Of a stretch of DNA of 64,000 nucleotides, positions 20,361 through 63,734 are shown piece by piece. Source of the DNA: Candidatus Woesearchaeota archaeon (GTDB taxonomy: Archaea; Nanobdellota; Nanobdellia; Woesearchaeales; GCA-2687795); contig NZBG01000024.1 in assembly GCA_002687795.1 (NCBI GenBank), positions 4,250 through 68,249 of the forward strand, given 5' to 3'. The notes under the pieces are model-generated. The model searched no databases, was not told the origin of the DNA, and saw nothing but the letters and a program-made list of their open reading frames with translations. The stretch's first letter is position 1. The number at the start of each line of letters is the position of its first letter. The position numbers and the translations under genes were made by a program.

Positions 20361-20729
20361 TTATCTCTTTCTTCTCTTGCTCTTCCTTGCAGAACGCTTT
20401 TCCTTTTTAGCAGCCTTCTTTCTCCTGGTCTTCGCTTTCTTTACGATTTTCTTTGCTAAAGGTCTTGCACTTCTGACAGCTTTCCTCACAATAGGTTTTG
20501 CTTTCTTTATAACTCTTTTTGCTAATGGTTTTACCCCTTTGATTGCTTTTTTTATTTCTTTCTTAACTTCTTTTTTCTCTTCGCCTATCCCAGCAAGTAA
20601 CTGGTCAATGATATATTCTCCTCTGTCTTCACTTTTTTTGCCGATAGTGTAAAGTTTCTTAGCTTTCTTTTTACCTAGAGAAAAAGCTCCTAATCCAACA
20701 AGAAAAACCTTTTTAATTCTATTAAGCAT
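20361..20729 (-). CDS. Small protein with a phasin-like N-terminus and an extremely basic K/R tail
   Basis: 122 aa. VFLVGLGAFSLGKKKAKKL, then repeated KPLAKRVIKKAKPIVRKAVRSARPLAKKIVKKAKTRRKKAAKKEKRSARKSKRRKR. Confidence 0.5.
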   Translation of the reverse strand: MLNRIKKVFLVGLGAFSLGKKKAKKLYTIGKKSEDRGEYIIDQLLAGIGEEKKEVKKEIKKAIKGVKPLAKRVIKKAKPIVRKAVRSARPLAKKIVKKAKTRRKKAAKKEKRSARKSKRRKR

Positions 20730-37741: not shown

Positions 37742-39325
37742 ATGGGAGCTAGAAAAAGGGGGTTGGATATTGTTTTAGAGCAGCCGCCAGAACCTCCGCC
37801 AGAGCTTAAGGGGGCAGGTCTTGGGGGTGTGAAGAAAATATTTGGTTTTGGTAGAAGGAAGGCTATAGAGCCATTGCCGGTTTTTGATAAGGGATTAAGC
37901 AGGAAAGTAGAGAAGCTTAATGAAAAGAAAGTAAAACTAGAGCAACAAGTAAAGGATTTAAAGGCAGCAAAAAAAGTTCTGTTAAAGGAAGTTAAGGATT
38001 ATGGGAAATTAAGGAATAAAAAAGGAAGCCCAGTTAAAGAAGAATTGAAGATAACCGAAAGGGATGGTTCTTTTTCTAATACACAAAAGGAATTGGCTGA
38101 AAGAAGAAAATTATTAGCAATGGACAGGAAGAATATAGAAAAAAAGATAGAGCTCCTAACCAAGAAACAGGAGCAGCTGGTTCAGCAGTCTAAGGATTTT
38201 GAGGCTAAGGATAAGCTGTTTAAGGAGGATGAGCAGGCGCTTAACCAGAAAGAGGATGAGCTTCTTGGGAGCATTAAAGAGCTTGAGAAGGACAGGGCTT
38301 TGTTAGCGGAAAAAGAGACTGGAATAATTCTAAAAACAAAAGAAATCAAGGAGAATAAAAATCTGCTGGATAGAGAAGAAAAAAAGGTAGATAATAAGCT
38401 TAAGAGCCTCCATAACAAGAAACAGGAAATCAGGGAAGATATGGCTATGTTAATAGAGAGCAAGAAAGAGATTGAGCAGGGTTTTATTAATAAGCAAACC
38501 CAACTGGAGAAACTGGAGAAAAAATGGGCGGAAAAGGAAAGCTCGTTTAAGAACAGCCAGCTTATGCTGGGAGAGTTAAGAAATATGTTTCTAAGCAGGG
38601 TTAAAATGGTTGAAGAAGGTGTAAGAACCCTTGAAAAAGAAGAAAAGAACATTATTAATAATATTAACCTGCTGGAGAAAAATAAAAGTATTCTAAGCAG
38701 CAAGGAACAGGAAATTATAGATCGGATAGAGCTATTAGGACAGACAAAGCTCTTCCTTAAAAACAAGGAAAAAGAGCTGAAGAAGAGGGAAGATATTGTT
38801 AACAAGGCAAAAGAATATGAGAGGAAGATGCCCGAGATAATACAGAGCATTACCATGCTTAAAAAAGAGCATATAATTGAAAAAAGAAAGCTTGGCAAGA
38901 TTACCACAGAGATCATGGCAAAGCTTGGGTTATTGAAGGACAGAGAGATTAGGTTAAGGGAGAAAGAGACATTATTGGGCAGAAAGGAACAGGAATTAAA
39001 ACAAAGAGGAACTGCGCTGACCAAGGAAAAAGAGCTCACAGATGAAGAAAAGTTCCATCTTTATATTAAAAAAGAAAGCAATCTTCCTGAGATAGGAGGC
39101 ACTGCAGAAGATGAGATGTCTCAGGCACATATGGAAATAGGTCCTTTGGTTACCAAAGCAAGGGAGTTGATCAGGACAAGAAACACAGCAGAAGCCATGA
39201 AGATAATCTCACAGATAGAATATATCCATGATAGGTTAGGCAAAGGCGATGAAGACAGAAGGAAGATTAATTATGATCTTATAGAACTGAAGACTGATGT
39301 TAAGCTGGCTGGGTTAGGCGGTTAA
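37742..39325 (+). CDS. Long coiled-coil protein, K/E-rich, function unknown
   Basis: 527 aa. Proline-rich N-terminus (EQPPEPPPELKGAGLGG), then about 400 aa of heptad-like K/E/L sequence. The C-terminus ends KLAGLGG. Confidence 0.6.
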   Translation: MGARKRGLDIVLEQPPEPPPELKGAGLGGVKKIFGFGRRKAIEPLPVFDKGLSRKVEKLNEKKVKLEQQVKDLKAAKKVLLKEVKDYGKLRNKKGSPVKEELKITERDGSFSNTQKELAERRKLLAMDRKNIEKKIELLTKKQEQLVQQSKDFEAKDKLFKEDEQALNQKEDELLGSIKELEKDRALLAEKETGIILKTKEIKENKNLLDREEKKVDNKLKSLHNKKQEIREDMAMLIESKKEIEQGFINKQTQLEKLEKKWAEKESSFKNSQLMLGELRNMFLSRVKMVEEGVRTLEKEEKNIINNINLLEKNKSILSSKEQEIIDRIELLGQTKLFLKNKEKELKKREDIVNKAKEYERKMPEIIQSITMLKKEHIIEKRKLGKITTEIMAKLGLLKDREIRLREKETLLGRKEQELKQRGTALTKEKELTDEEKFHLYIKKESNLPEIGGTAEDEMSQAHMEIGPLVTKARELIRTRNTAEAMKIISQIEYIHDRLGKGDEDRRKINYDLIELKTDVKLAGLGG

Positions 39326-44001: not shown

Positions 44002-45188
44002 TTAACCCTTCTTAAATATTTTCCCAAGATAAGAAAACCATCCAAAACATTTCCCTTTATAAGCTTTCTTTAAGAACCCACATTTCAAGGGTTTGCACTC
44101 ATTCCCTTCAGTAAACTCGTTATCTTCACATTCAAGCTCAACACATTCATGGTCTAAAATCTGTTCATTTTCATAACATTCTAACTTAACACATTCATGT
44201 TCAAAGGCAAACTCATCTTCTTTGCATTCTAATTTAATGCATTCATGTTCCCCAAGGTATTCATCATCCTCGCATTCCAGTGAAATACATTCATGCTCAA
44301 CCAACTGTTCATCTTCCTTGCATTCCAATGAAATACATTTATTCTCAGAGCATTCTTCATCTTCTTTGCAAACACTGCTCTCGCAGCATTCATAATCATA
44401 ACATGTATTGTTCATTGGATATTGGCATTCATCGCATTCCGACTTTGAGCAGGTACCTTCTTCACATATTTCATCAGTGAAACAATCTTCATTCCTGTCG
44501 CAGGATGGCATCTCTATACAATTCGCCCTTTCCCTTAAATTATACTTTGCTCTTTCACAGCCATCGTATGATACTATAAACCTTGATACATTAAGAGGGG
44601 TTTCCCAGCTCATTATGAAGCGGTTCTTTGTTTTGAACTGCCTTACTACCATATCAGTCTCATTAAACTCTTTACTGAGAATATCAGGAGCATGCGTATA
44701 TGTTTTCTTTTCCTTTGTTTCAGCATCATACCTTAATGTATAGGGCTGGTTAAACCTTAAAGAATTATCTTTATCTATCTTGAAATTATTGGCAGTAAAC
44801 TTGGCATAGAAGGTATCATTTCTTTTATAGCAGTAGTCCACAGACATATTGAATATCCTGCAGCTGAACTTAAACGCAGGGCATTTTGCAGTAGATTTCC
44901 TTCTCCCGATAACAACAGTATACCTTGTTGGTTTACTGCTTACAAACAAAGCCTCCTCTGAACGGAAGCGAAATTTATTGTCTTCATACTCAGTCCAAGT
45001 TCCATCAACCTTAAAATAAGGATCTTTTGAGCTCTTTTTCCTTGCAGATACCAGCCCCTTTGATTTTCCAGAGACACCAGTTATAAGGATAGAGCCATCA
45101 TCATTACATTTGATAGAGGCTGCGTAGGAGAAAGTAGACAAAACAAAAAAAACAAGAAAAAACTAAAAACTAAAAATAGTTTTTTCAT
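44002..45188 (-). CDS. Secreted cysteine-rich protein with a 16-aa tandem CxxLEC repeat; the signal peptide is out of frame by one base in this assembly
   Basis: The track ORF is 44002..45141 (TTG start). An ATG at 45188 overlaps the upstream stop (TAATG) and encodes MKKLFLVFSFFLFF..., one frame off. One extra A in the A8 run (45145-45152) or the A6 run (45157-45162) restores MKKLFLVFSFFLFFFVLSTFSYA/ASIKC. Confidence 0.6.
44080..44337 (-). repeat. 48-bp coding tandem repeat, about 5.4 copies
   Basis: CISLECKEDEQLVEHE / CISLECEDDEYLGEHE / CIKLECKEDEFAFEHE / CVKLECYENEQILDHE / CVELECEDNEFTEGNE / CKPLKC. Confidence 0.9.
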
Positions 45189-47800
45189 TATTCCGTGTTT
45201 CCTTCTTCAGAAGGTTTTGGTTCTTCAAATGACTCCTCTTCGAACTCTTCTTCAAAGTCTTCAGACTCTTTTTCTTCGAAAAACTCTTCTTCTTCAAAAG
45301 GTTCCTCATCAAAACCCTCCATCTCTTCAAAGGGTTCTTCTTCAAATTCTTCCTCCTCGAAAAACTCTTCTTCATCTTCTCCAATTTCTTCCCAGTCATC
45401 AAATTCCTCTCCTTCTAGACCTCCTTCCAGTTCATTTATTTCACTATATAAGTCTTCAATCTGCTCCTCCTGGAACTGGTCATTCAAAGAGCTGCATGCA
45501 TCATCTCCAACATAATTATCGCTCTCATCAAAGCAGTAATCAGGAGCTGTCCCATGATCAACTTCACCCTGGAAGAACTCTTCGTGCAATGCGCTGCATG
45601 CGTCATTTCCTATATACTCACCATCCTCATAACAATAATCAGGAGGCCCTCCTTCTCCTGGCCCTCCTTCACCGCCAGGACCTCCCCTCTCATCATTCCT
45701 TCTACTACACTCTTCATCACCAACATATTCCCCACTTTCATCAAAGCAGTATTCAGGAGCAGTTCCAAATTTTCCTTCGCCTCCATACAACTCTTCTATT
45801 ATAACTGCGCATTTCAATTCTCCTATAAATCCCATCCCTTCTCCTTCAAAGCATTCATCAGGTGATGCGCCATACCTCTCTTTCATCATATTATGGCACT
45901 CTTCCCAGTTGCTTGCGCCAAGGCTAACACACCCTGGATCAATCCTTTTCATACATTCCTCATCACCAACATACCATCCAATTTCATCCAGGCACTCTGG
46001 AGGTGAAGGCCCAAATTCACCTTCTTCTCCTTCTTCACCCCAGCCCATTATACCTGCGCATTCTTCATGGCCAATAAACATATCTCCTTCCACGCACTCA
46101 TCAGGATGGGCTCCAGCATATTCTACTCCTGTCAGTTGCTTGCAATAATCTCCCCCTATGTATTGCCCTTCTCTAAAGCATTCTTCTGGGGGCCTTCCCA
46201 TCATATCCCACATTGCCTCCTCACATGCATGCATTCCAATATACTGTCCATTATCCATGCATTCCCTTGGCATTGTGTTGGAATCTCCTCCCTCATCACC
46301 CCACATGCCTTCACAGTCATCAAATGTTGTTCCCCCAGCTTCAGCGCATTCAGGGTTTATTGCAGCAATGCATTCTTCATCTCCGATGTAATTATCATTT
46401 TCATCAAGGCATTCTGGTGGTGTTGGGCCATATATATCACCCATGATTTCCTCGCATTCTTCTTTTGAATAGGCACCAGCTTCTTTGCATTCAGGGGGTA
46501 GTATTATTTCCATGCATTCTTCTTCTGTGGTTGCTCCAGCTTCTAGACATTCAGGAGGCAGCATAATTTCCATCATAATTTCCTTGCATTCTTCTCTTGA
46601 ATAGGCACCAGCATCTTTGCATTCTTGCGGCAGCATTATGTCCATGCACTCTTGCTCTCCTATAAAAATGCCGTCTTCATCAAGGCACTGCAGTGGAGTA
46701 GGGCCATATATCTCAACCATAATTTCCTCGCACTCCATTGGACCTATAAACTCGCCATTCTCCATACATTCATCAGGCGGAGACCCATAAATTTCAAACA
46801 TCAGTTCCTCGCATTCTTCTTGTGTAGTTAGGCCTTCTCTCACGCATTCAGGAGGCATAAAATCATCAAACATCTCTCTTTCTTTTTCTCTTACATGCTC
46901 TGTAAATTCTTTATCTTCAAACCCTTCAGGCATTTCTATTGTATCTAGCTCATCACAAGCCCTTTGATTAAATTCAAACTCGCATTCAATTGCTAAAGGG
47001 ACAGCCTTTTCGCACACTTTTCTATGGCTTTTAACAGGTATCTTGCTGCAATCGCACTCTCTTGGATCAATAAAGCATTGTGCCATTCCATCCATAATTC
47101 CTTCTTTTGCTTTTTCTTCCCTGTCTTTTAGATCATCCCCTATATATTCATCCAGCCAGTCAAGGGCATTATCAATATCACATCTTGGCTCTGCTTCCAT
47201 TAGCTTCCAGTCCTGCAAAGCAAGTTTTTCGCATAAATTCTGGATTTTTGCAGCAAGCTCAACTGCCATCTTATTTTTATCTGCCTGTGTGCTTTGCGCA
47301 TCAATCATACTTTTAACTTCATCCCAGTCAGCTGGCATTGATTCTTCCATCTCCTTTAATATCGCATTAATAGCAGCCATCCTTTCATTTGTTTCGTTTT
47401 GTAAATCAGGGCTTGCTTCCTGTTCTATAATTGTAGAAATATTATGTGCTCTTGCCAAAGCTTTCTTAGTTTCATCTGGTTTATTCTTATCAACCATTAG
47501 CTTTGCTTCTGCAACCTTTTCTTCAGTAACCTTTAAGGCAAACTCTGCCTTATCCTTCCCCTTCTTTAAGGTAAGCCTGACATCATCTATAAACGTGTCA
47601 ACAACATAAAGTGGGCTGTCAGGAGTTATGCCTGCCTTATTTTCTATGATTTCTTCCTCAATAAACATTTCCTCGTCTTCAAAATCCTCAAAAGCACTTT
47701 CATCAAGAGTAGCCTCTCTGGCAAACATATCATCCTGCGCATAAACAATACCAATACATAGAATTAATATTAATAAGAACCATTTCTCCATTTTTCTCAT
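45188..47800 (-). CDS. Large secreted acidic protein: DUF5667-like helical N-domain, about 17 two-cysteine modules, poly-E/F tail
   Basis: 870 aa. Signal peptide MRKMEKWFLLILILCIGIVYA/QDD. ITPDSPLYVVDTFIDDVRLTL...KVTEEKVAEAK resembles the PxSPLY...ERLAEA module. Residues about 316-770 hold interleaved PPEC.EAGA..EEC and P.EC.D..G.[FY][IV]G..EC units. The tail is EEEFFEEEEFEEEPFEEMEGFDEEPFEEEEFFEE. Confidence 0.7.
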   Translation of the reverse strand: MRKMEKWFLLILILCIGIVYAQDDMFAREATLDESAFEDFEDEEMFIEEEIIENKAGITPDSPLYVVDTFIDDVRLTLKKGKDKAEFALKVTEEKVAEAKLMVDKNKPDETKKALARAHNISTIIEQEASPDLQNETNERMAAINAILKEMEESMPADWDEVKSMIDAQSTQADKNKMAVELAAKIQNLCEKLALQDWKLMEAEPRCDIDNALDWLDEYIGDDLKDREEKAKEGIMDGMAQCFIDPRECDCSKIPVKSHRKVCEKAVPLAIECEFEFNQRACDELDTIEMPEGFEDKEFTEHVREKEREMFDDFMPPECVREGLTTQEECEELMFEIYGSPPDECMENGEFIGPMECEEIMVEIYGPTPLQCLDEDGIFIGEQECMDIMLPQECKDAGAYSREECKEIMMEIMLPPECLEAGATTEEECMEIILPPECKEAGAYSKEECEEIMGDIYGPTPPECLDENDNYIGDEECIAAINPECAEAGGTTFDDCEGMWGDEGGDSNTMPRECMDNGQYIGMHACEEAMWDMMGRPPEECFREGQYIGGDYCKQLTGVEYAGAHPDECVEGDMFIGHEECAGIMGWGEEGEEGEFGPSPPECLDEIGWYVGDEECMKRIDPGCVSLGASNWEECHNMMKERYGASPDECFEGEGMGFIGELKCAVIIEELYGGEGKFGTAPEYCFDESGEYVGDEECSRRNDERGGPGGEGGPGEGGPPDYCYEDGEYIGNDACSALHEEFFQGEVDHGTAPDYCFDESDNYVGDDACSSLNDQFQEEQIEDLYSEINELEGGLEGEEFDDWEEIGEDEEEFFEEEEFEEEPFEEMEGFDEEPFEEEEFFEEKESEDFEEEFEEESFEEPKPSEEGNTE

Positions 47801-47839
47801 TTTTTAACACCTCTTTTTGTAACAATAAATTAGACTTTG

Positions 47840-47861
47840 CAGTATACTAATATGTATACTG
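47840..47861. promoter_or_regulatory. 8-bp inverted repeat between the TATA-like box and SD of the 870-aa gene (operator candidate)
   Basis: cagtatac taatat gtatactg. On the minus strand it is preceded by tttatatgcc (rc of 47861-47870) and followed by agaggtg, 8 nt before ATG 47800. Confidence 0.4.
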
Positions 47862-47886
47862 GCATATAAATGTTTTTATTAGAAGT

Positions 47887-49596
47887 CTATAAGCCTAATT
47901 CAACATCCTGTTCATACTTTTTCCTAAACTTCAAGGCATGCTCAGCCTTCTGCAGTTCCCTGCCAAGATAGATTGCATGGTCAGTCTTATAAATCTGCCC
48001 AACATGAGAAATCTTCAAACCGATATCCAAGGCAGTCTTCCCTTCAAACCTCTCAAGCTCCTGATTACTCTCTTTATCAACATGGGTAAGCACAATATTA
48101 TTATCTTTTACCTCAATAACATAATTCCCTCTTGCATCATTGTAATCAATCTTCTGTTTTCTAAACTTAGCAAGCGTATCCTCAACCTGCTGATAATAAT
48201 GATTATAGATATGCGCGCTTCCTGAAGTGATAGTAAGAATTCCAGGCTTAACTCCTATTTCATCAGCAATCCTTTTCTGTATTGCAGCGCATCCATAAGC
48301 ATTCTCAGGCCAGCCCTGAGTCATGTCATGGCTTCTGAAGAACACAAACAGGTTAAGCTTTTCATCATGAATCAATGCCTGTAGGAATACAAGGCATGGG
48401 CTGCTCTTATGCTTTCTCATCAGCTCATCCTGGGCATGCCATGTAATTGCCACAACATTCTTTGACTTAGGGTCTCTCTTAAGAACCTCAATCATATCCT
48501 GCAGTTGGTCAATCTCACAGCATTCCTTTCCAAGCTTGTTTTTCTTATAAATTAGATTTGCATCTAAATGTGAACCTTGGCCAAACTCAAAATCCTTATA
48601 CTCCTTAGAACTAACCAACTCCTTGATTTCCTCAGCAGAAGGATAATAATAAGCCCTCAGCTTATTCCCATAAGTATAAGCCTTGCCTTCAGGCAGTATA
48701 GGAGACAAAATCTCTTTCTTATAAGCCTCAATCTTTTCATTTGTTAATGGAACAAGGAAAGGGTTATATGATAAATCAATGTTCTGCGGGTCATGTATAA
48801 CAGCAACCATATTATTGATTTCTTTGATCCACCTGTCAGTCTCTGCATTCATAAGGTTATCCTTTCCATACCTATAGATATTATGTATGATCTCAACCCA
48901 GGTTTCAGGAATTGTACTGCAATGCACAACCAAAGGTCCCCCTTCATATTGCATAGCAACCTTTGACTTTTCATATTCAAAGGTGTATGGCTGCTCAATA
49001 AAAGGCTCTTTCCTCTCAAGCATCCTAATCAAGTCGTTTGCTTTCTCAATCTTCTCCTCAAAGCTTGCATCAGGCATATCCTTATTCAAATCAATAAGCT
49101 TTACATTATCTTTAACCTTCATAACCATCTCAGTAGGAATATTCTTATCAATATACACAGAATTCTCAAACCCTGGAACCTTTCTGTTTTCATCAATGCC
49201 TTTTTCAAAGAAAGCCCTTAATGCATTAGCGCTTGTAAGCTCAACCCCTTCATCACTCTTAGCAGTGCCATCTCCGGACTTGGAAGAATACTCCTCACCC
49301 AGCATTATGATATATCTTATGTAAGGATTGCCTAAAATATTCCTTAACATCCCTGTAAGTCCTGATGGTGTGTAAAAGTTAGTGGCAATCGCAAGATTCT
49401 CCTTATCAAGCCTGGGAATAACAGCGTCCCTCATAGTCCATAAGAAAGTCACAGCAACATTAGGCAAATCAGAAGCATTGTTTTTTCCTGATTCCTTAAA
49501 CAGATGATAAGCAACCCTGTCCTTGACAGCAACAGGCCAGCCAAGACTGCCATCACTGCCTTTTAAGACCTTAATATCATCAATATTCAGGCTCAT
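47887..49596 (-). CDS. Thymidylate-synthase (ThyA)-family enzyme with a long N-terminal MtrA-like extension
   Basis: 569 aa. The C-terminal half has ThyA signatures: KSSPCLVFLQ (catalytic Cys), FFRSHD, GWPENAYG, SGSAHIYNHY. The N-terminal 200 aa (GWPVAV..., NILGNPYIRYIIMLGEE, ANALRAFFEKGIDENRKVPGF, VKLIDLN) parallel MtrA as I recall it (GWP..., NPNIRYLLVTGSE, SLHANGVKDNRISGA, VDVVNLL). Confidence 0.65.
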   Translation of the reverse strand: MSLNIDDIKVLKGSDGSLGWPVAVKDRVAYHLFKESGKNNASDLPNVAVTFLWTMRDAVIPRLDKENLAIATNFYTPSGLTGMLRNILGNPYIRYIIMLGEEYSSKSGDGTAKSDEGVELTSANALRAFFEKGIDENRKVPGFENSVYIDKNIPTEMVMKVKDNVKLIDLNKDMPDASFEEKIEKANDLIRMLERKEPFIEQPYTFEYEKSKVAMQYEGGPLVVHCSTIPETWVEIIHNIYRYGKDNLMNAETDRWIKEINNMVAVIHDPQNIDLSYNPFLVPLTNEKIEAYKKEILSPILPEGKAYTYGNKLRAYYYPSAEEIKELVSSKEYKDFEFGQGSHLDANLIYKKNKLGKECCEIDQLQDMIEVLKRDPKSKNVVAITWHAQDELMRKHKSSPCLVFLQALIHDEKLNLFVFFRSHDMTQGWPENAYGCAAIQKRIADEIGVKPGILTITSGSAHIYNHYYQQVEDTLAKFRKQKIDYNDARGNYVIEVKDNNIVLTHVDKESNQELERFEGKTALDIGLKISHVGQIYKTDHAIYLGRELQKAEHALKFRKKYEQDVELGL

Positions 49597-58279: not shown

Positions 58280-59788
58280 ATGACAAATAACAATATAATC
58301 AAGCAGGAATTCATCGCAGAAGGCACAACCTGCGAGAGCTGCGCTGAAATAATAAAAAGACAGGCATTAAAGGTTGATGGTGTTGAAGAAGCAGAGTTTG
58401 ATTACGCAACAGAAACAGGGTCTGTTATCTTTGATGGAACAAAAACTAATACTGATGATATACTTTACAAAATAGAAGAAAAGGGTTATACATGTTATCT
58501 TCTTGATGAAGAGAAATCTAAGAAAAGCAAGAAACCTATTGGCTGGATATTTGCTATTATAGGATTTCTTGTGGCAGGATATTTTATCTTAAGACTGGTT
58601 GATGGTATAAATCTGCCCCAAATAAGCCAGAATATGGGATATGGCTTATTGTTTATAGTGGGATTATTAACAGGCTTCCATTGCATAAGCATGTGCGGCG
58701 GTTTCGTTGTTTCATATACAGCTAAAAATGCGCAAGAAGGAAAAAGTTCGCATAAATCCCATTTGATGTATGGTATTGGAAAAACTTTATCTTATACACT
58801 TATAGGAGCTATTTTCGGCTTAATAGGTTCAATCATAGCCTTTACGCCAATGATGAGAGGAATTGCTGGATTACTTGCAGGTTCATTTCTAATATTATTC
58901 GGACTAAAAATGCTGAATATTATTCCAGCCCTAAGAAAGATACAGTTCAAAACACCAAAATTCTTATCAAAGTTTGTTGGCAAAGAGTCTCAGAGACAAT
59001 CAAGCCCTTTGGTAATAGGGTTATTAAACGGTTTCATGATTGCCTGCGGCCCACTACAAGCCATATATATCATGGCAGCCGGTACAGGCAGCATACTTGA
59101 AGGCGCCAAACTCTTATTCGTATTTGGTCTAGGAACTCTTCCAGCCCTGTTAGGATTTGGCTATTTTGCAAGTTACCTTTCAAGCAAGATGACTCATAAA
59201 ATCCTTAAAGCATCAGGAGCTATTGTGATTATCTTAGGCCTTGTTATGGTTAACAACGGCTTAGTTTTAACAGGCACTGGTTATGACTTTAAGTCTATGG
59301 TTGATTATGTTACTGGCGCAAACAGCATAACAGGCAGCACAGTGGGAACAAAATCAGAAAATACACCATTATTAAACAAAGGTTTCCAGGAAATCAGGAT
59401 GGAGGTTAACAGGTATGGCTGGAAGCCTGATAAATTTGTTTTGAAGAAAGGAGTTCCTGTTAGATGGATAATTGAAGGAAAAGAAATCAATGGATGTAAT
59501 AACGCTATCCAAGTACCAAAATACGGATTAAACTTTGATATTAAAAGAGGAGAGCAAGTGATAGAATTTACCCCTAAAGAAGAAGGCACAATTAGATGGA
59601 GCTGTTGGATGGGCATGATCCCCGGAACTTTTATTGTTAAAGATGATATTGATTTAGGCAATGAAGAAGCTGTTCAAAAAGAGTTGGCTGCTGTGCCTGA
59701 ACAGCAAAAAGGCTCCTGCGGCGGAAGCTGCGGCAGTCCTACATGCGGAGCTGCAACAGGAGGGGGCTGCGGCTGCGGTGGAAGATAA
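58280..59788 (+). CDS. HMA domain + DsbD_2/TauE-like membrane domain + cupredoxin-like domain fusion with a Cys/Gly tail
   Basis: 502 aa. EGTTCESCAEIIK (HMA), membrane core with GFHCISMCGG and MIACGPL. The C-terminal beta domain reads EIRMEVNRYGWKPDKFVLKKGVPVRWII...INGCNN...WSCWMGM. The tail is GSCGGSCGSPTCGAATGGGCGCGGR. Confidence 0.65.
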   Translation: MTNNNIIKQEFIAEGTTCESCAEIIKRQALKVDGVEEAEFDYATETGSVIFDGTKTNTDDILYKIEEKGYTCYLLDEEKSKKSKKPIGWIFAIIGFLVAGYFILRLVDGINLPQISQNMGYGLLFIVGLLTGFHCISMCGGFVVSYTAKNAQEGKSSHKSHLMYGIGKTLSYTLIGAIFGLIGSIIAFTPMMRGIAGLLAGSFLILFGLKMLNIIPALRKIQFKTPKFLSKFVGKESQRQSSPLVIGLLNGFMIACGPLQAIYIMAAGTGSILEGAKLLFVFGLGTLPALLGFGYFASYLSSKMTHKILKASGAIVIILGLVMVNNGLVLTGTGYDFKSMVDYVTGANSITGSTVGTKSENTPLLNKGFQEIRMEVNRYGWKPDKFVLKKGVPVRWIIEGKEINGCNNAIQVPKYGLNFDIKRGEQVIEFTPKEEGTIRWSCWMGMIPGTFIVKDDIDLGNEEAVQKELAAVPEQQKGSCGGSCGSPTCGAATGGGCGCGGR

Positions 59789-59812
59789 AAACTAAAAGAG
59801 GCATGATAAAAA

Positions 59813-60676
59813 ATGGAACATGAAACCCATAAAGAACATGAGAGAGAGCATGGAACACATAAACCTAAGCATGAGGTTCATCATAGGCATAGGAAAGATA
59901 ATAAAGTTGGTTTGGATAAGTTATTGATAATAGGTTTTGCAATAAATATTCTCTTGATGCTGTTTGTCTTAACTCAGCTTTCAGGTTTATCAAATAAGAT
60001 TGAAAGTTTATCGATTTCTGGTTCAGAGATAAAAACCGGTGAAGATACAGCCCCACAGGGGGCGCAGGCACCAACGCCTTCTCCTGAGTCAGAGCCTCAA
60101 GCAGACCTATCAGCTATAGCAGATGATGACCCTTCCATAGGACCCGATAATGCCAAAGTAACTGTGGTTGAATTTTCAGATTTTGAATGCTCTTACTGCG
60201 GCGCAGCAGCTGGAACTCATGAAGGATTAGTGAGCCAGTTTAAGTCCCGTGACCCAACTTGGGAAGCGCCAGTCCCAAAGCTGAAAGAGCTTGCTGAACA
60301 GGGAAAAATAAGGCTTGTGTATAGGGATTTCCCATTAAGATTTCATCAAAACGCACAAAAAGCTTCAGAAGCTGCCGAATGCGCAGACGAGCAAGGCAAA
60401 TTCTGGGAATATCATGATAAGATTTTTGAGAATCAAGGGAGTATAGATGTTGCTTCCTTAAAAAAATACGCTTCTGACCTCGGCCTTAATACAGCTAAGT
60501 TCAATGAGTGCCTTGACTCAGGGAAAATGGCTGATGAGGTTACAAAAGACCTTAATGATGGCGCTAAACTAGGAGTGAGCGGAACACCAGCATTCTTTAT
60601 TAATGGAAAATTGATTTCAGGAGCGCAGTCGTTTTCAGCATTTAAGTCTATAATTGACCAGGAATTAGCAAAATGA
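59813..60676 (+). CDS. DsbA-family thiol:disulfide oxidoreductase, membrane-anchored, with a His-rich N-terminus
   Basis: 287 aa. MEHETHKEHEREHGTHKPKHEVHHRHRK, TM LLIIGFAINILLMLFVL, Pro/Ala linker, VVEFSDFECSYCG (CxxC), GVSGTPAFFING. Confidence 0.8.
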   Translation: MEHETHKEHEREHGTHKPKHEVHHRHRKDNKVGLDKLLIIGFAINILLMLFVLTQLSGLSNKIESLSISGSEIKTGEDTAPQGAQAPTPSPESEPQADLSAIADDDPSIGPDNAKVTVVEFSDFECSYCGAAAGTHEGLVSQFKSRDPTWEAPVPKLKELAEQGKIRLVYRDFPLRFHQNAQKASEAAECADEQGKFWEYHDKIFENQGSIDVASLKKYASDLGLNTAKFNECLDSGKMADEVTKDLNDGAKLGVSGTPAFFINGKLISGAQSFSAFKSIIDQELAK

Positions 60677-61014
60677 TTTTAGGAAAATTAATTTTTTATT
60701 TTTTAGGGATTTTTATGGTTTTGTTAGTAATTAATGGGTGTTCAGGTCAAGGTAAATATGATGATTTTGCCCAATGCCTGACAGAGAAAGGAGTGAAGAT
60801 GTATGGAACAGAATGGTGCAGCCATTGCCAAAATCAAAAGAAAGCTTTTGGCAAGTCTTTTGGATATGTTGACTTTGTTGACTGCGATGTTGATAAAAAC
60901 GAGTGCTTAGCAGCCGGGGTAACAAGCTACCCTACCTGGAGAATAGATGGGACTAATTATCGCGGTGAGCAACATTTTCCCAGATTAGCCCAATTATCAG
61001 GGTGCAGTACTTAA
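60673..61014 (+). CDS. Thioredoxin-like secreted protein or lipoprotein (VKOR-associated Trx type)
   Basis: ATGA overlap with dsbA. Signal and lipobox-like VLLVINGCSG. YGTEWCSHCQNQKKAFG...VDCD...C...GVTSYPTW. Confidence 0.7.
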   Translation: MILGKLIFYFLGIFMVLLVINGCSGQGKYDDFAQCLTEKGVKMYGTEWCSHCQNQKKAFGKSFGYVDFVDCDVDKNECLAAGVTSYPTWRIDGTNYRGEQHFPRLAQLSGCST

Positions 61015-61043
61015 AATAAAGATTAATTGGATGAAAATTAAGA

Positions 61044-61491
61044 ATGAAAAAAATAATTACAGAAGTCTTATTGGTTATGATTTTAGGGGTCTTTTTGGCG
61101 GGTTGCACTTCAAGCACAAAAACACCCACAGGAAGCGCTGTTGTTAGTGATGATTATATAAGGATCTCTCTCTGAGGTATCATCAAAAATGGAGAAATAT
61201 TCTTTTGATGCTGGAGGTGTAAGAGTAAAGTATTTTGTTGTAAAAGGCACAGACGGCAATGTAAGGACAGCCTTTGATGCCTGTGATGTCTGCGGTGGTT
61301 CGCAAGGATACTCTCAAAGGGGTAGTGATGTAGTATGCAACAAATGCAGCAGAAACTTTAAGATTAATGCTTTGGGCAGTGAAAACCTTGGTGGTGGCTG
61401 CTGGCCATCCTTTTTAGAGCATAAGATTGAGGGAAATAATGTGTTAATAAAGAAATCTGACATAGTGGCAGGAGCTTTTAGGTTTAGATGA
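61044..61491 (+). pseudogene. DUF2318-like Cys4 metal-binding lipoprotein, split by a frameshift in a (TC)4 tract (or sequencing error)
   Basis: MKKIITEVLLVMILGVFLAGCTSS...DDYIRISL(stop 61173-61175). The next frame, open from 61162, reads SLSEVSSKMEKYSFDAGGVRVKYFVVKGTDGNVRTAFDACDVCGGSQGYSQRGSDVVCNKCSRNFKI...GGCWP. Removing 1 nt or adding a TC unit at 61165-61173 fuses the two. Confidence 0.65.
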
Positions 61492-61541
61492 AAGCATTAA
61501 TATAATTAATAGTAAATAAAATAGTCTAATCTATCCAAAAA

Positions 61542-63734
61542 ATGAAAACAACAAACCTCCAAATAACCGGGATGCACTGCGCAAGCTGCGCGACTATAAT
61601 CAATAAATCTTTAACAAAAGCAAAAGGCGTAAAAGAATCTAATGTAAACTTCTCCACAAACAAGGCAACTGTGCTTTTTGATGAAACGCAGCTTTCAGAA
61701 GAAGTTATAATGAAAATAATTGAGGATAAAGGCTATAAAGCCATGCTTAGCACAGGAAAAGATGATTTTAAAAAACAGGAACTTATGCAAAAAGAGGAAA
61801 TCAAAGGTCTAAGAAACAAATTCATTCTAAGCCTTATTTTTGCTATTCCAGCTTTTATTATTGGCATGGTATTCATGTGGCTTGACATAATGGTTCCATA
61901 CCAGGATTATATTCTTTGGTTCTTAGCAACACCTATCCAGTTCTATGTTGGCTGGCAGTTTTATAAGGGAACATGGGCTGCTTTAAAGAACAAGACTGCT
62001 AACATGGATTCGCTTGTTGCTCTTGGCACAAGCGCAGCTTACTTATTCAGCGTCTATGCAGTGTTATTTAAGCCGGAACTTGGCCAGTATTTTGAGACAT
62101 CTGCAATTCTCATAACCTTAGTCATAATGGGTAAGCTCCTTGAAGCCATAGCAAAAGGGAAAACCTCTGAAGCAATCAAAAAGCTTATGGGCTTATCCCC
62201 CAAAACAGCAACAGTAATAAGAAAGGGAAAAGAGATTAAGATAAAGATTGACGATGTTGTTGAAGGAGATATAATCATAGTCAAACCAGGAGAAAAAATT
62301 CCAGTGGATGGAAATATAGTAGAAGGCATTTCATCTGTTGATGAAAGCATGATTACCGGGGAAAGCATGCCGGTTGAAAAGAAGAAAGGTGACATAGTAA
62401 CAGGAGCTACAATCAACAAGCACGGCAGCTTCAGGTTCAAGGCAACAAAAGTTGGAGAAAATACAACATTGTCAAGAATTGTTAAATTAATTGAAGAAGC
62501 CCAAGGAAAAAAGGCTCCAATACAAAGATTTGCTGACGTTGTATCCTCATATTTTGTTCCTGTTGTGATAGGCATATCAATTATAACTTTTTTAACCTGG
62601 TACTTTGGATTTGGCAAAGAGATTCAGTTTGCTTTGATAACCTCAGTAGCAGTCCTTGTTATTGCATGCCCATGCTCTTTAGGTCTTGCAACCCCAACAG
62701 CAATCATGGTAGGAACAGGCAAAGGCGCTAAAAAAGGAATCCTTATCAAAGGCGGAGATGCCCTTGAGACAGCTCACAAGCTAAGTTCCATCATCTTTGA
62801 CAAGACAGGAACAATAACAAAAGGCGTTCCAGAAGTAACAGACATAATGCCAATAAACATAGGCTCTGAAAATAAATTACTTCAACTGGCAGCAAGCATA
62901 GAAAAAAACTCTGAGCATCCTTTGGCAGAAGCTATTGTAAACAAAGCAAAACAGGAAAAGCTGGCTCTTAAAGAGCCTAAAGCTTTCAAGGCAATACCTG
63001 GCCATGGCATAAAAGCAAAACTGAACAGGATCCAATACTACTTTGGCAATGCGAAACTTATGGCTGATAATAAGATTAATATTAAGAAGTTAAAAGCCAA
63101 GATAGAAAGCCTTGAAGAACAGGGAAAGACTGTTATGGTTATCTCAGACAAGAAAAAAGTTCAGGGTATTATAGCTGTTGCAGATACCATCAAGGAAACA
63201 TCAAAAACTGCTGTTAACAAGCTGCAGGATATGAAAATCTTTGTTTATATGATAACAGGCGATAATAAAAGAACCGCTAATGCAATCGCTAAACAAGCTG
63301 GAATAAACCATGTGTTTGCAGAAGTTTTACCAGAGGATAAAGCTAATTATGTAAAGAAGCTTCAGAAAAAAGGAAAGGTTGCGATGGTGGGGGATGGAAT
63401 TAACGATGCTCCTGCATTGGCTCAGGCTGATATTGGAATTGCCATGGGTTCAGGCACAGATGTTGCCATGGAAACAGGCAACATAGTGTTAATGAGAAAC
63501 GATCTTTTAGATGTGCCAAGGTCTATCAAACTAAGCAAATTAACAATGTCAAAGATAAGGCAGAACATGTTCTGGGCATTGTTTTATAACACTTTAGGCA
63601 TACCACTCGCTGCAGGAGTGCTTTACCCTTTCACAGGCTGGCTCCTTTCCCCTATTATAGCGGGAGCAGCAATGGCAATGAGCAGCGTGAGTGTTGTAAG
63701 CAACTCTTTGCTGCTCAAGTATAAGAAGTTATAA
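61542..63734 (+). CDS. copA: Copper-translocating P1B-type ATPase
   Basis: 730 aa. N-terminal [18 protein letters not shown] in [32 protein letters not shown]. Confidence 0.92.

Follow-up and report, generated by a model that had tools for sequence, protein, structure and literature searches.

In a 64,000-nucleotide stretch of DNA from a Candidatus Woesearchaeota archaeon (contig NZBG01000024.1; the whole stretch is called the window), a gene on the reverse strand at 45188..47800, with its stop codon at 45188-45190, encodes a protein of 870 amino acids (aa) in which residues 316-775 hold 34 cysteines as 17 consecutive pairs. As judged from sequence profiles, these pairs mark copies of one family of two-cysteine mini-domains that differ in their loops, and the same unit is found in about 100 proteins of DPANN archaea (Diapherotrites, Parvarchaeota, Aenigmarchaeota, Nanoarchaeota and Nanohaloarchaeota) and in surface proteins of bacteria from the candidate phyla radiation (CPR). 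I tentatively interpret the 870-aa protein as a stalk at the cell surface or outside the cell, stapled by disulfides and serving envelope architecture or cell contact, an interpretation whose chance falls a little short of even. None of the resources searched describes the repeat, whereas cysteine-rich extracellular proteins with tandem repeats are, as a general kind, already known from ultra-small symbionts.

The product is identical to GenBank MAG08443.1, which is annotated as 'hypothetical protein CMO89_03145' (Candidatus Woesearchaeota archaeon) and encoded on a contig of 70.9 kb, and a fragment of the gene is also present in the Tara Oceans sample TARA_037_MES_0.1-0.22. The parts of the protein are listed below with the basis for each; pLDDT is the predicted local distance difference test score of the AlphaFold2 models.

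47738..47800, reverse strand: signal peptide, residues 1-21 (MRKMEKWFLLILILCIGIVYA / QDD), from its n/h/c layout and from homologues
47633..47737, reverse strand: acidic N-terminal linker, residues 22-56, pLDDT 50-61
47342..47632, reverse strand: DUF5667 domain, residues 57-153, Pfam PF18915
46856..47341, reverse strand: helical extension with 8 conserved cysteines, residues 154-315, from alignment A6 and AlphaFold2
45476..46855, reverse strand: array of 17 two-cysteine mini-domains, residues 316-775, from cysteine pairs, profile and model
45191..45475, reverse strand: Glu/Phe-rich C-terminal tail, residues 776-870, from composition and model

The two-cysteine repeat array

A sequence-only reading of this gene had described two alternating short modules, with about six copies of a C-x9-C form and about 11 copies of a C-x10/11-C form. 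The copy numbers proved exact, as there are six units of the EAGA type (type A) and 11 of the G-x-[FY]-[IV]-G type (type B). Both spacings, however, had been given one residue short, and the units do not alternate but are intermixed, in the order A B B A A A B A B B B B A B B B B. The cysteine pairs are located at the following residues:

Type A (C-x10-C): 319-330, 394-405, 418-429, 438-449, 485-496, 624-635
Type B (C-x11-13-C): 345-357, 372-385, 464-477, 514-526, 541-553, 569-581, 603-616, 650-664, 685-698, 723-735, 756-769

The loop reads x-E-A-G-A-x-T-x-E-E in type A and x-E-[DN]-G-x-[FY]-[IV]-G-x-E-E in type B, and the units run past the second cysteine into a conserved helix, C-E-x-I-M-x-E-x-Y-G-P, with a period of about 24-30 aa. 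Because the type A and type B profiles align end to end (hhalign; 25 of 27 columns, probability 91.7%, E 8e-7) and share the same frame on either side of the loop, [LM]-P-P-E-C ... [DE]-[DE]-C-E-x-I-M-x-E-K-Y-G-P (from 457 type A and 131 type B units), the 'two modules' are, on the profile evidence, loop variants on one scaffold and thus a single repeat family. Glutamate stands beside both cysteines, with 85% E before the first and 62% E before the second in the consensus tables. The family is also not confined to two loops, since further classes, C-x7-C and C-x15-C, are present among the 100 homologous proteins:

C-x7-C: 161 copies in 100 proteins, EGLSxEE
C-x10-C: 471 copies in 100 proteins, type A
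C-x11-C: 183 copies in 100 proteins, type B
C-x12-C: 42 copies in 100 proteins, type B
C-x15-C: 47 copies in 100 proteins, LDAGLDGSGRDDWKK

A hidden Markov model of the type A unit was built from distant homologues only, leaving out the window protein and its five closest relatives. Run against the six-frame open reading frames (ORFs) of the window, it matches the 870-aa ORF at E 2e-33 and all others at E >0.5, and by this profile measure the repeats are far beyond chance. For the array as a whole, an independent type A model gives E 8e-36. The DNA copies of the units are only 60-85% identical, which points to old duplications and rules out a recent expansion of the repeat. Close orthologues have 13-17 units. 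Identity among orthologues is 0.62 in the loops versus 0.72 in the frame, so that hypervariable binding loops can be dismissed; loops about as conserved as the frame show nothing of the diversification by selection that marks variable adhesins, and these sequences seem better explained by purifying selection on a structural protein. Both cysteines are invariant in every unit, and the cysteine count of the mature protein is even in 90 of the 100 homologues.

In the full-length AlphaFold2 model, based on the 100-sequence alignment (mean pLDDT 76.7), residues 55-340 form one long all-helical bundle of the DUF5667 domain and the eight-cysteine region at pLDDT >90, and the repeats reach 74-90; a separate model of residues 314-500 has a mean pLDDT of 88.7. 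A type A unit is modelled as a short helix (P-E-C-x-x), a loop and a helix of 10-12 residues that starts from T/S-x-E-E-C, and a type B unit as a turn and a two-stranded β-hairpin closed by [DN]-G, followed by the same helix. In both types the loop or hairpin follows the first cysteine, and the second cysteine falls within the first turn of the helix, as would be expected for a staple within the unit; intra-unit disulfides are plausible in these models. The stacked disulfide hairpins proposed earlier survive only in part: the cysteine pairs are indeed regular, but AlphaFold2 gives mini-domains of a loop or β-hairpin plus an α-helix instead of bare hairpins.

Head, tail and relatives of the protein

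Residues 1-21 have the form of a Sec signal peptide, with a basic n-region, a 13-residue hydrophobic core and a V-Y-A end. Signal-peptide-like N-termini are found in nearly all homologues, which keep the end ...[VF][FYS]A-Q, and residues 5-22 are modelled as a lone helix. The protein thus looks secreted through predicted Sec export, as the sequence-only reading had it. A lipobox at Cys15 was considered and rejected, as its context L-I-L-C is wrong and Cys15 is not conserved. The first 55 residues are poorly conserved, with a mean identity of 0.34 among close orthologues. The domain that follows, formerly called DUF5667-like, is a true member of DUF5667: it matches PF18915 at E 4.4e-15 with 56.3 bits against a curated cut-off of 27 bits, over profile positions 1-98 of 99, and is modelled as four long helices (pLDDT 90-97). 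Next to it lies the best-conserved part of the family (identity 0.76 among close orthologues), a region modelled as all helical (pLDDT 84-97) whose eight cysteines (C190, 207, 242, 249, 251, 263, 273, 282) are all invariant in the 29-sequence alignment A6, with the motif DPRECDCSxIPV...LAIxCEFE...AC. No Pfam, NCBIfam or PDB (sequence or profile) match was found for this region.

The tail was aptly described before as a 95-residue E/F/D tail; it contains 46 E, 13 F and 6 D, is 55% acidic and ends in ...EEPKPSEEGNTE. In the model it is helical to about residue 815, beyond which pLDDT drops below 50 and the tail is disordered. Acidity extends over the whole protein, which has 29% D+E and a net charge of -189, compared with a median D+E of 13% and a median isoelectric point (pI) of 9.0 in the window. 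The latter value rules out a proteome-wide acidic ('salt-in') bias as the source, and the acidity belongs to the 870-aa protein and not to the proteome.

The tails of homologues are of other low-complexity types, rich in D/Y/N, P/S or G/S. A conserved C-terminal tail is observed in 39 of the 100 homologues (for instance P0002, P0022, P0034, P0087 and P0091; L001:10540-10619 and L006:12770-12847), and consists of a low-complexity linker followed by [IVAP]-T-G-x-x-[IV]...[DN]-x-F-[LF]-x-[YF]-[YF]-F-[KR], or xTGxxI...F[LF]xYYF[KR]. Neither its short length nor its polarity suits a transmembrane helix, and NCBIfam sorting-domain models gave no match to it in six archaeal homologues with tails; DPANN archaea may use this tail as an anchoring or sorting signal not described before. 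The 870-aa protein has neither this tail nor a transmembrane segment, NCBIfam gives no match to PGF-CTERM or another sorting domain of the archaeal sortase type, and it carries only two sequons of the N-glycosylation type.

Among the matches listed for the full protein there are 100 homologues, and the best full-length relatives share 50-68% identity with the query across 80-91% of its length. Collinear homologues come from Woesearchaeota, Pacearchaeota and Nanoarchaeota, and the DPANN proteins (about 100) share one layout of signal peptide, DUF5667, eight-cysteine region, cysteine-pair repeats and low-complexity tail. In a scan of one genome per GTDB species, with a profile from 29 sequences, DUF5667-repeat genes were found at 46 loci on 46 different contigs, all of them in metagenome-assembled genomes of DPANN archaea, where the gene is apparently single-copy and widely conserved. 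A DUF5667-repeat gene of the DPANN type is present in five records titled 'uncultured Methanosarcinales archaeon' (L018, L022, L029, L031 and L039), of which L018, L029 and L031 also have the Woesearchaeota-type neighbour gene described below; this suggests mislabelled taxonomy or bin contamination.

The repeat is rare, as an exhaustive search of 1.84 billion representative proteins with the repeat block alone yielded only 195 clusters at E <=1e-3, of which 91 reached E <=1e-10. Outside the homologue list, 42 matches were inspected for their domains: Big_13 is present in 36 and TSP3_bac in 30 of these, others have Big_7, Big_6 or LRR_5, and DUF5667 occurs in one of the 42. In the Parcubacteria/Minisyncoccia-type surface proteins among the listed homologues, the C-x10-C unit, M-P-P-E-C-x-x-A-G-x-x-T-x-E-E-C-x-K-I-M-F-x-K-Y, is repeated in tandem 10-18 times between N-terminal immunoglobulin (Ig)-like domains and a C-terminus with TSP3, Big_13 and a transmembrane segment, and the repeat block of the window matches CPR proteins at E down to 8e-64. 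They differ from the 870-aa protein in that they are bacterial, lack the DUF5667 head, are not notably acidic and are clearly membrane-anchored; they also lack the type B loops, which are found only in archaeal proteins. In these anchored proteins the repeat takes the position of a stalk, leading from distal Ig-like or LRR domains to a proximal TSP3-Big_13-transmembrane anchor. Because it is found both in the DUF5667 proteins of DPANN archaea and in anchored CPR proteins, the repeat would thus be a mobile extracellular module common to two ultra-small, presumably episymbiotic radiations, and as far as the search reaches it is essentially restricted to their exported or anchored proteins.

DUF5667 itself is uncharacterised and covers residues 57-153 only, and the eight-cysteine region and the repeats have no family model. 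The earlier statement that no family could be named for the repeats holds throughout. A Pfam scan of the 870-aa protein gave nothing beyond DUF5667 at E <=1, and NCBIfam scans gave nothing for this protein and nothing relevant to the repeat in six archaeal homologues, one CPR protein and the neighbour protein P0233. The PDB sequence search (phmmer) returned only E-selectin at E 0.06, where cysteine-rich stretches are spuriously aligned, and the PDB profile search with A6 and A5 returned low-complexity or coiled-coil noise or nothing. With Foldseek, the full model retrieved only generic helical bundles (spectrin, α-catenin; best E 0.18) and the repeat block nothing significant (best E 0.56 in the PDB and 0.38 in BFVD). 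A full-text literature search found no description of DUF5667/PF18915 or of a cysteine-rich surface family from Woesearchaeota or DPANN archaea; large cysteine-rich extracellular proteins are described from the CPR Peribacteria, where attachment or rigidity was proposed as their function (PMC4736985).

In size and topology the modelled type B units resemble the fingers of C2H2 zinc-finger arrays (ββα, about 28 aa), with the cysteines roughly at zinc-ligand sites, and tandem C2H2 zinc fingers are the top, non-significant Foldseek PDB matches of the repeat block (E 0.56, template modelling (TM) score about 0.15). However, the units have two cysteines 10-13 residues apart and no conserved histidine instead of the C-x2-4-C / H-x3-5-H set, and since the 870-aa protein is predicted to be extracellular and is acidic, it would not be DNA-binding as such arrays are. 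Helicobacter cysteine-rich proteins (Hcp) and other Sel1-like proteins are built from 36-aa α/α repeats, each bridged by one disulfide. The concept of tandem short helical repeats in a secreted protein, with one disulfide each, would be the same, but this is an analogy only: the present repeat is about 25 and not 36 aa long and differs in cysteine placement and loop structure, Sel1 (PF08238) gives no match at E <=1, and neither PDB sequence and profile searches nor fold searches match Hcp structures.

The calcium-binding TSP3/TSP3_bac repeats are likewise acidic, cysteine-containing, short and extracellular; the 870-aa protein has no match to PF18884 or PF02412 and no D-x-D-x-D-G. Reading the type B loop as an EF-hand or DxDxDG loop was rejected, as the register does not fit and [DN]-G is modelled as a β-turn. 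Antistasin (PF02822), Pacifastin (PF05375) and EGF-like six-cysteine patterns have no match in the 870-aa protein either; a few homologues have additional inhibitor-type modules after the repeats, namely Antistasin in P0016 and P0017 and a faint Pacifastin in P0034. Twin CX9C (CHCH) domains, in which each of two helices has a C-x9-C motif and two disulfides join the helices, were also discarded, as each unit has one cysteine pair spanning the loop as C-x10-13-C and Pfam gives no match.

The adjacent cysteine-rich gene and the rest of the window

Directly downstream of the 870-aa gene lies a second gene of interest:

44002..45141, reverse strand: second predicted secreted cysteine-rich protein, 379 aa, MAG08442.1

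The 379-aa protein contains 30 cysteines. Of its five N-x-[ST] sequons several are conserved in its family, and conserved sequons mark its N-terminal domain of 230 residues. At 44117-44370 on the same strand, its gene has a 48-nucleotide (nt), 16-aa tandem repeat with at least five C-x4-C-x10-C units (…LECKEDEQLVEHECISLEC…). Neither the protein nor its repeat has a Pfam, NCBIfam or PDB (profile) match, and the distant homologues P0248 and P0249 add a C-terminal transmembrane helix. As called, the gene starts at TTG and lacks a signal peptide. Its proper start is an ATG at 45188-45186 (gene 44002..45188), which overlaps the stop of the 870-aa gene as TAATG and leads into MKKLFLVFSFF... in a second frame. 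The frame as called has FFLVFFVLSTFSYA/ASIKC immediately ahead of the TTG. The signal peptide is split by a frameshift of one base within a T-run at about 45140-45175, and a one-base indel there would restore it. Protein P0253 of the same 90%-identity cluster has an intact MKKLFFIISFFLILFILSTLSYA/ASIKC, and all homologues of the neighbour have a signal peptide. The frameshift is likely a homopolymer assembly error, or else it is real.

Homologues of the neighbour adjoin the DUF5667 gene in the metagenomic loci L001-L005 and L007, whose DUF5667 proteins are 32-68% identical to that of the window, and in 18 of the 46 genome loci. Three arrangements are observed, with the neighbour upstream and co-directional, divergent, or downstream as in the window, while Pacearchaeota loci are without the neighbour gene. 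As the adjacency survives rearrangement, it argues for a functional link between the two genes, and the gene order indicates that this pairing is conserved in Woesearchaeota. The 870-aa protein had been put forward as a candidate for an undescribed extracellular system; the conserved pairing with a second secreted cysteine-rich protein speaks for this, but the family is already public in the form of about 100 'hypothetical' DPANN proteins.

The region on the other side of the gene was read directly from the sequence:

47801..47886, reverse strand: upstream intergenic region with promoter-like and ribosome-binding-site (RBS) elements

It contains a TATA-like box, TTTATAT, at 47870-47864, preceded by an A-rich stretch that resembles a TFB recognition element (BRE), and an RBS-like GAGGTG at 47813-47808, 7 nt from the ATG of the 870-aa gene. 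Between the TATA-like box and the start codon, at about 47849-47867, AGTATAC occurs twice with a gap of 5 nt, each copy containing the palindrome GTATAC, and this pair may be an operator site. Directly upstream, at 47887-49596 on the reverse strand, an unusual fusion protein of 569 aa is encoded, with an MtrA-like N-terminal region, a partial thymidylate synthase and a C-terminal PterinBD-DUF4346; the MtrA-like match is marginal, at 26.5 bits against a cut-off of 25 bits.

The surroundings of the locus consist of archaeal housekeeping genes, such as those for RadA, ribosomal protein S6e, GatD and a protein of the tRNA-guanine transglycosylase family (TGT). A cluster of three genes is located about 12 kb from the 870-aa gene:

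58280..59788, forward strand: HMA and DsbD_2/CcdA-type membrane protein with a Cys/Gly-rich end
59813..60676, forward strand: DsbA-like thioredoxin with a His-rich N-terminus (MEHETHKEHEREHGTHKPKHEVHHRH...)
Third gene of the 58280-63734 cluster, forward strand: copper-type P-type ATPase

This cluster joins extracytoplasmic thiol-disulfide chemistry to metal handling, and from its DsbD_2/CcdA-type and DsbA-like genes the organism appears to have extracytoplasmic thiol-disulfide machinery. Two other uncharacterised proteins were seen in the window, one of 122 aa (20361-20729, reverse strand) with a pI of 11.4 and a Lys/Arg-rich C-terminus, and one of 527 aa (37742-39325, forward strand) with 19% D+E, a still higher K+R and no Pfam match. 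Rfam and tRNA scans found no tRNA, rRNA or other Rfam family in the whole window.

Possible roles of the protein

From the observed architecture, repeat unity, distribution and gene pairing I infer disulfides, surface retention, a stalk role and a partnership. The 870-aa protein would be Sec-exported and act as an elongated, extremely acidic structural protein at the surface or outside the cells of marine Woesearchaeota, with the long helical bundle (DUF5667 and the eight-cysteine helical region) as its head, followed by the 17 mini-domains. In each of these, the cysteine of P-x-E-C is probably bonded to the cysteine in the first turn of the next α-helix ([DE][DE]-C-E-x-I-M-x-E-x-Y), a staple that would hold a helix-loop-helix in type A and a β-hairpin-helix in type B. 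Indirect support for such bonding comes from the invariant pairs, the even cysteine counts and the DsbA-like and DsbD_2 genes of the window. Strung together, the units could form a protease-resistant, extended stalk or spacer whose length is tuned by the number of units. The low-complexity acidic tail would be the cell-proximal or cation-bridging end, a place taken in most family members, on this proposal, by the low-complexity linker and the xTG...YYF[KR] tail; in its absence, the 870-aa protein may be held by cation bridging or by a partner, or may be released. It would probably work together with the adjacent secreted cysteine-rich protein in envelope architecture or in cell-to-cell (host) contact. 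A surface or extracellular role as such, already suggested from the sequence, is the most reasonable reading of the data.

Several points weigh against a disulfide-stapled stalk. An even number of cysteines follows trivially from the duplication of two-cysteine units, and with no recognisable anchor the 870-aa protein could simply be released. The models have a low predicted TM score (pTM 0.46-0.54), which makes the mutual placement of the units, and with it a rod-like array, uncertain. In addition, the mesopelagic setting of Tara station 037 may be oxygen-poor, which would make extracellular disulfides less self-evident, and the signal peptide of the partner gene is frameshifted in the assembly.

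Alternatively, the cysteine pairs or the carboxylates could bind cations or metals (Ca2+, Fe, Cu, Zn), in which case the protein would buffer metals outside the cell, nucleate a biomineral or build a metal-dependent matrix. The extreme charge (-189, 29% D+E, 55% acidic tail) and the glutamates conserved beside both cysteines (85% and 62%) are in line with this, as are the Ca-binding TSP3_bac domains next to the repeat in CPR proteins, the copper ATPase and HMA-domain genes within the window, and the zinc-finger arrays of the same ββα topology among the non-significant top Foldseek matches. However, two cysteines per unit and no conserved histidine are too few for a canonical tetrahedral site, and the metal genes, at a distance of about 12 kb, are not among the conserved neighbours. 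The binding of Ca2+ or metal that had been suggested from the charge finds no specific support, with no DxDxDG/EF-hand or TSP3 pattern, no Pfam metal-binding match and [DN]-G modelled as a β-turn. The CPR repeats are not notably acidic, so that acidity is a trait of the lineage and no inherent property of the repeat; this also counts against metal binding, which I consider unlikely. Similarly low is the probability that the protein is an S-layer or main envelope lattice protein, perhaps together with its 379-aa neighbour. In favour are its acidity, its predicted secretion, an apparently single-copy gene that is widely conserved (46 DPANN loci) and lies among housekeeping genes, and the five N-x-[ST] sequons of the neighbour, of which several are conserved. 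But known archaeal S-layer proteins are β-rich, and an all-α head with mini-repeats is unlike them; the 870-aa protein, moreover, has no match to PGF-CTERM or another sorting domain and only two sequons.

A released, soluble effector acting on a host or competitor, for instance as a multi-headed inhibitor or a decoy, has a slimmer chance still. The lack of an anchor in the 870-aa copy, the Antistasin or faint Pacifastin modules after the repeats of some homologues, and the fact that small disulfide-stabilised units are typical of secreted inhibitors would suit such a function, but the units match no inhibitor family, their loops are conserved and not diversifying, and the tail in 39 of 100 homologues together with the anchored CPR proteins points to surface retention as the ancestral state. 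A bolder form of the stalk proposal can also be considered, in which the unit would be an undescribed extracellular mini-domain, a disulfide-stapled counterpart of the ββα zinc-finger topology that was exchanged between DPANN archaea and CPR bacteria and that, with the cysteine-rich neighbour, would form a host-contact apparatus of Woesearchaeota. I regard this as doubtful, though not far-fetched.

DPANN archaea and CPR bacteria presumably live in attachment to other cells, and for most of their lineages next to nothing is known of the molecules that make this contact. The 870-aa protein merits a family model and would make a structural target; the analysis reveals no function, and it is not a surprise that would change the field. 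The repeat offers a concrete handle on DPANN and CPR contact, as it is confidently foldable, without an entry in the searched catalogues and suited to a family model and a metagenome survey, and the conserved pairing with a second secreted cysteine-rich protein is a two-component hypothesis that can be tested. If the units are indeed zinc-free ββα and αα modules resting on one disulfide, they would be very small and stable building blocks for protein designers. Even if the function is purely structural, the annotation would still be useful for about 200 protein clusters that are now 'hypothetical'.

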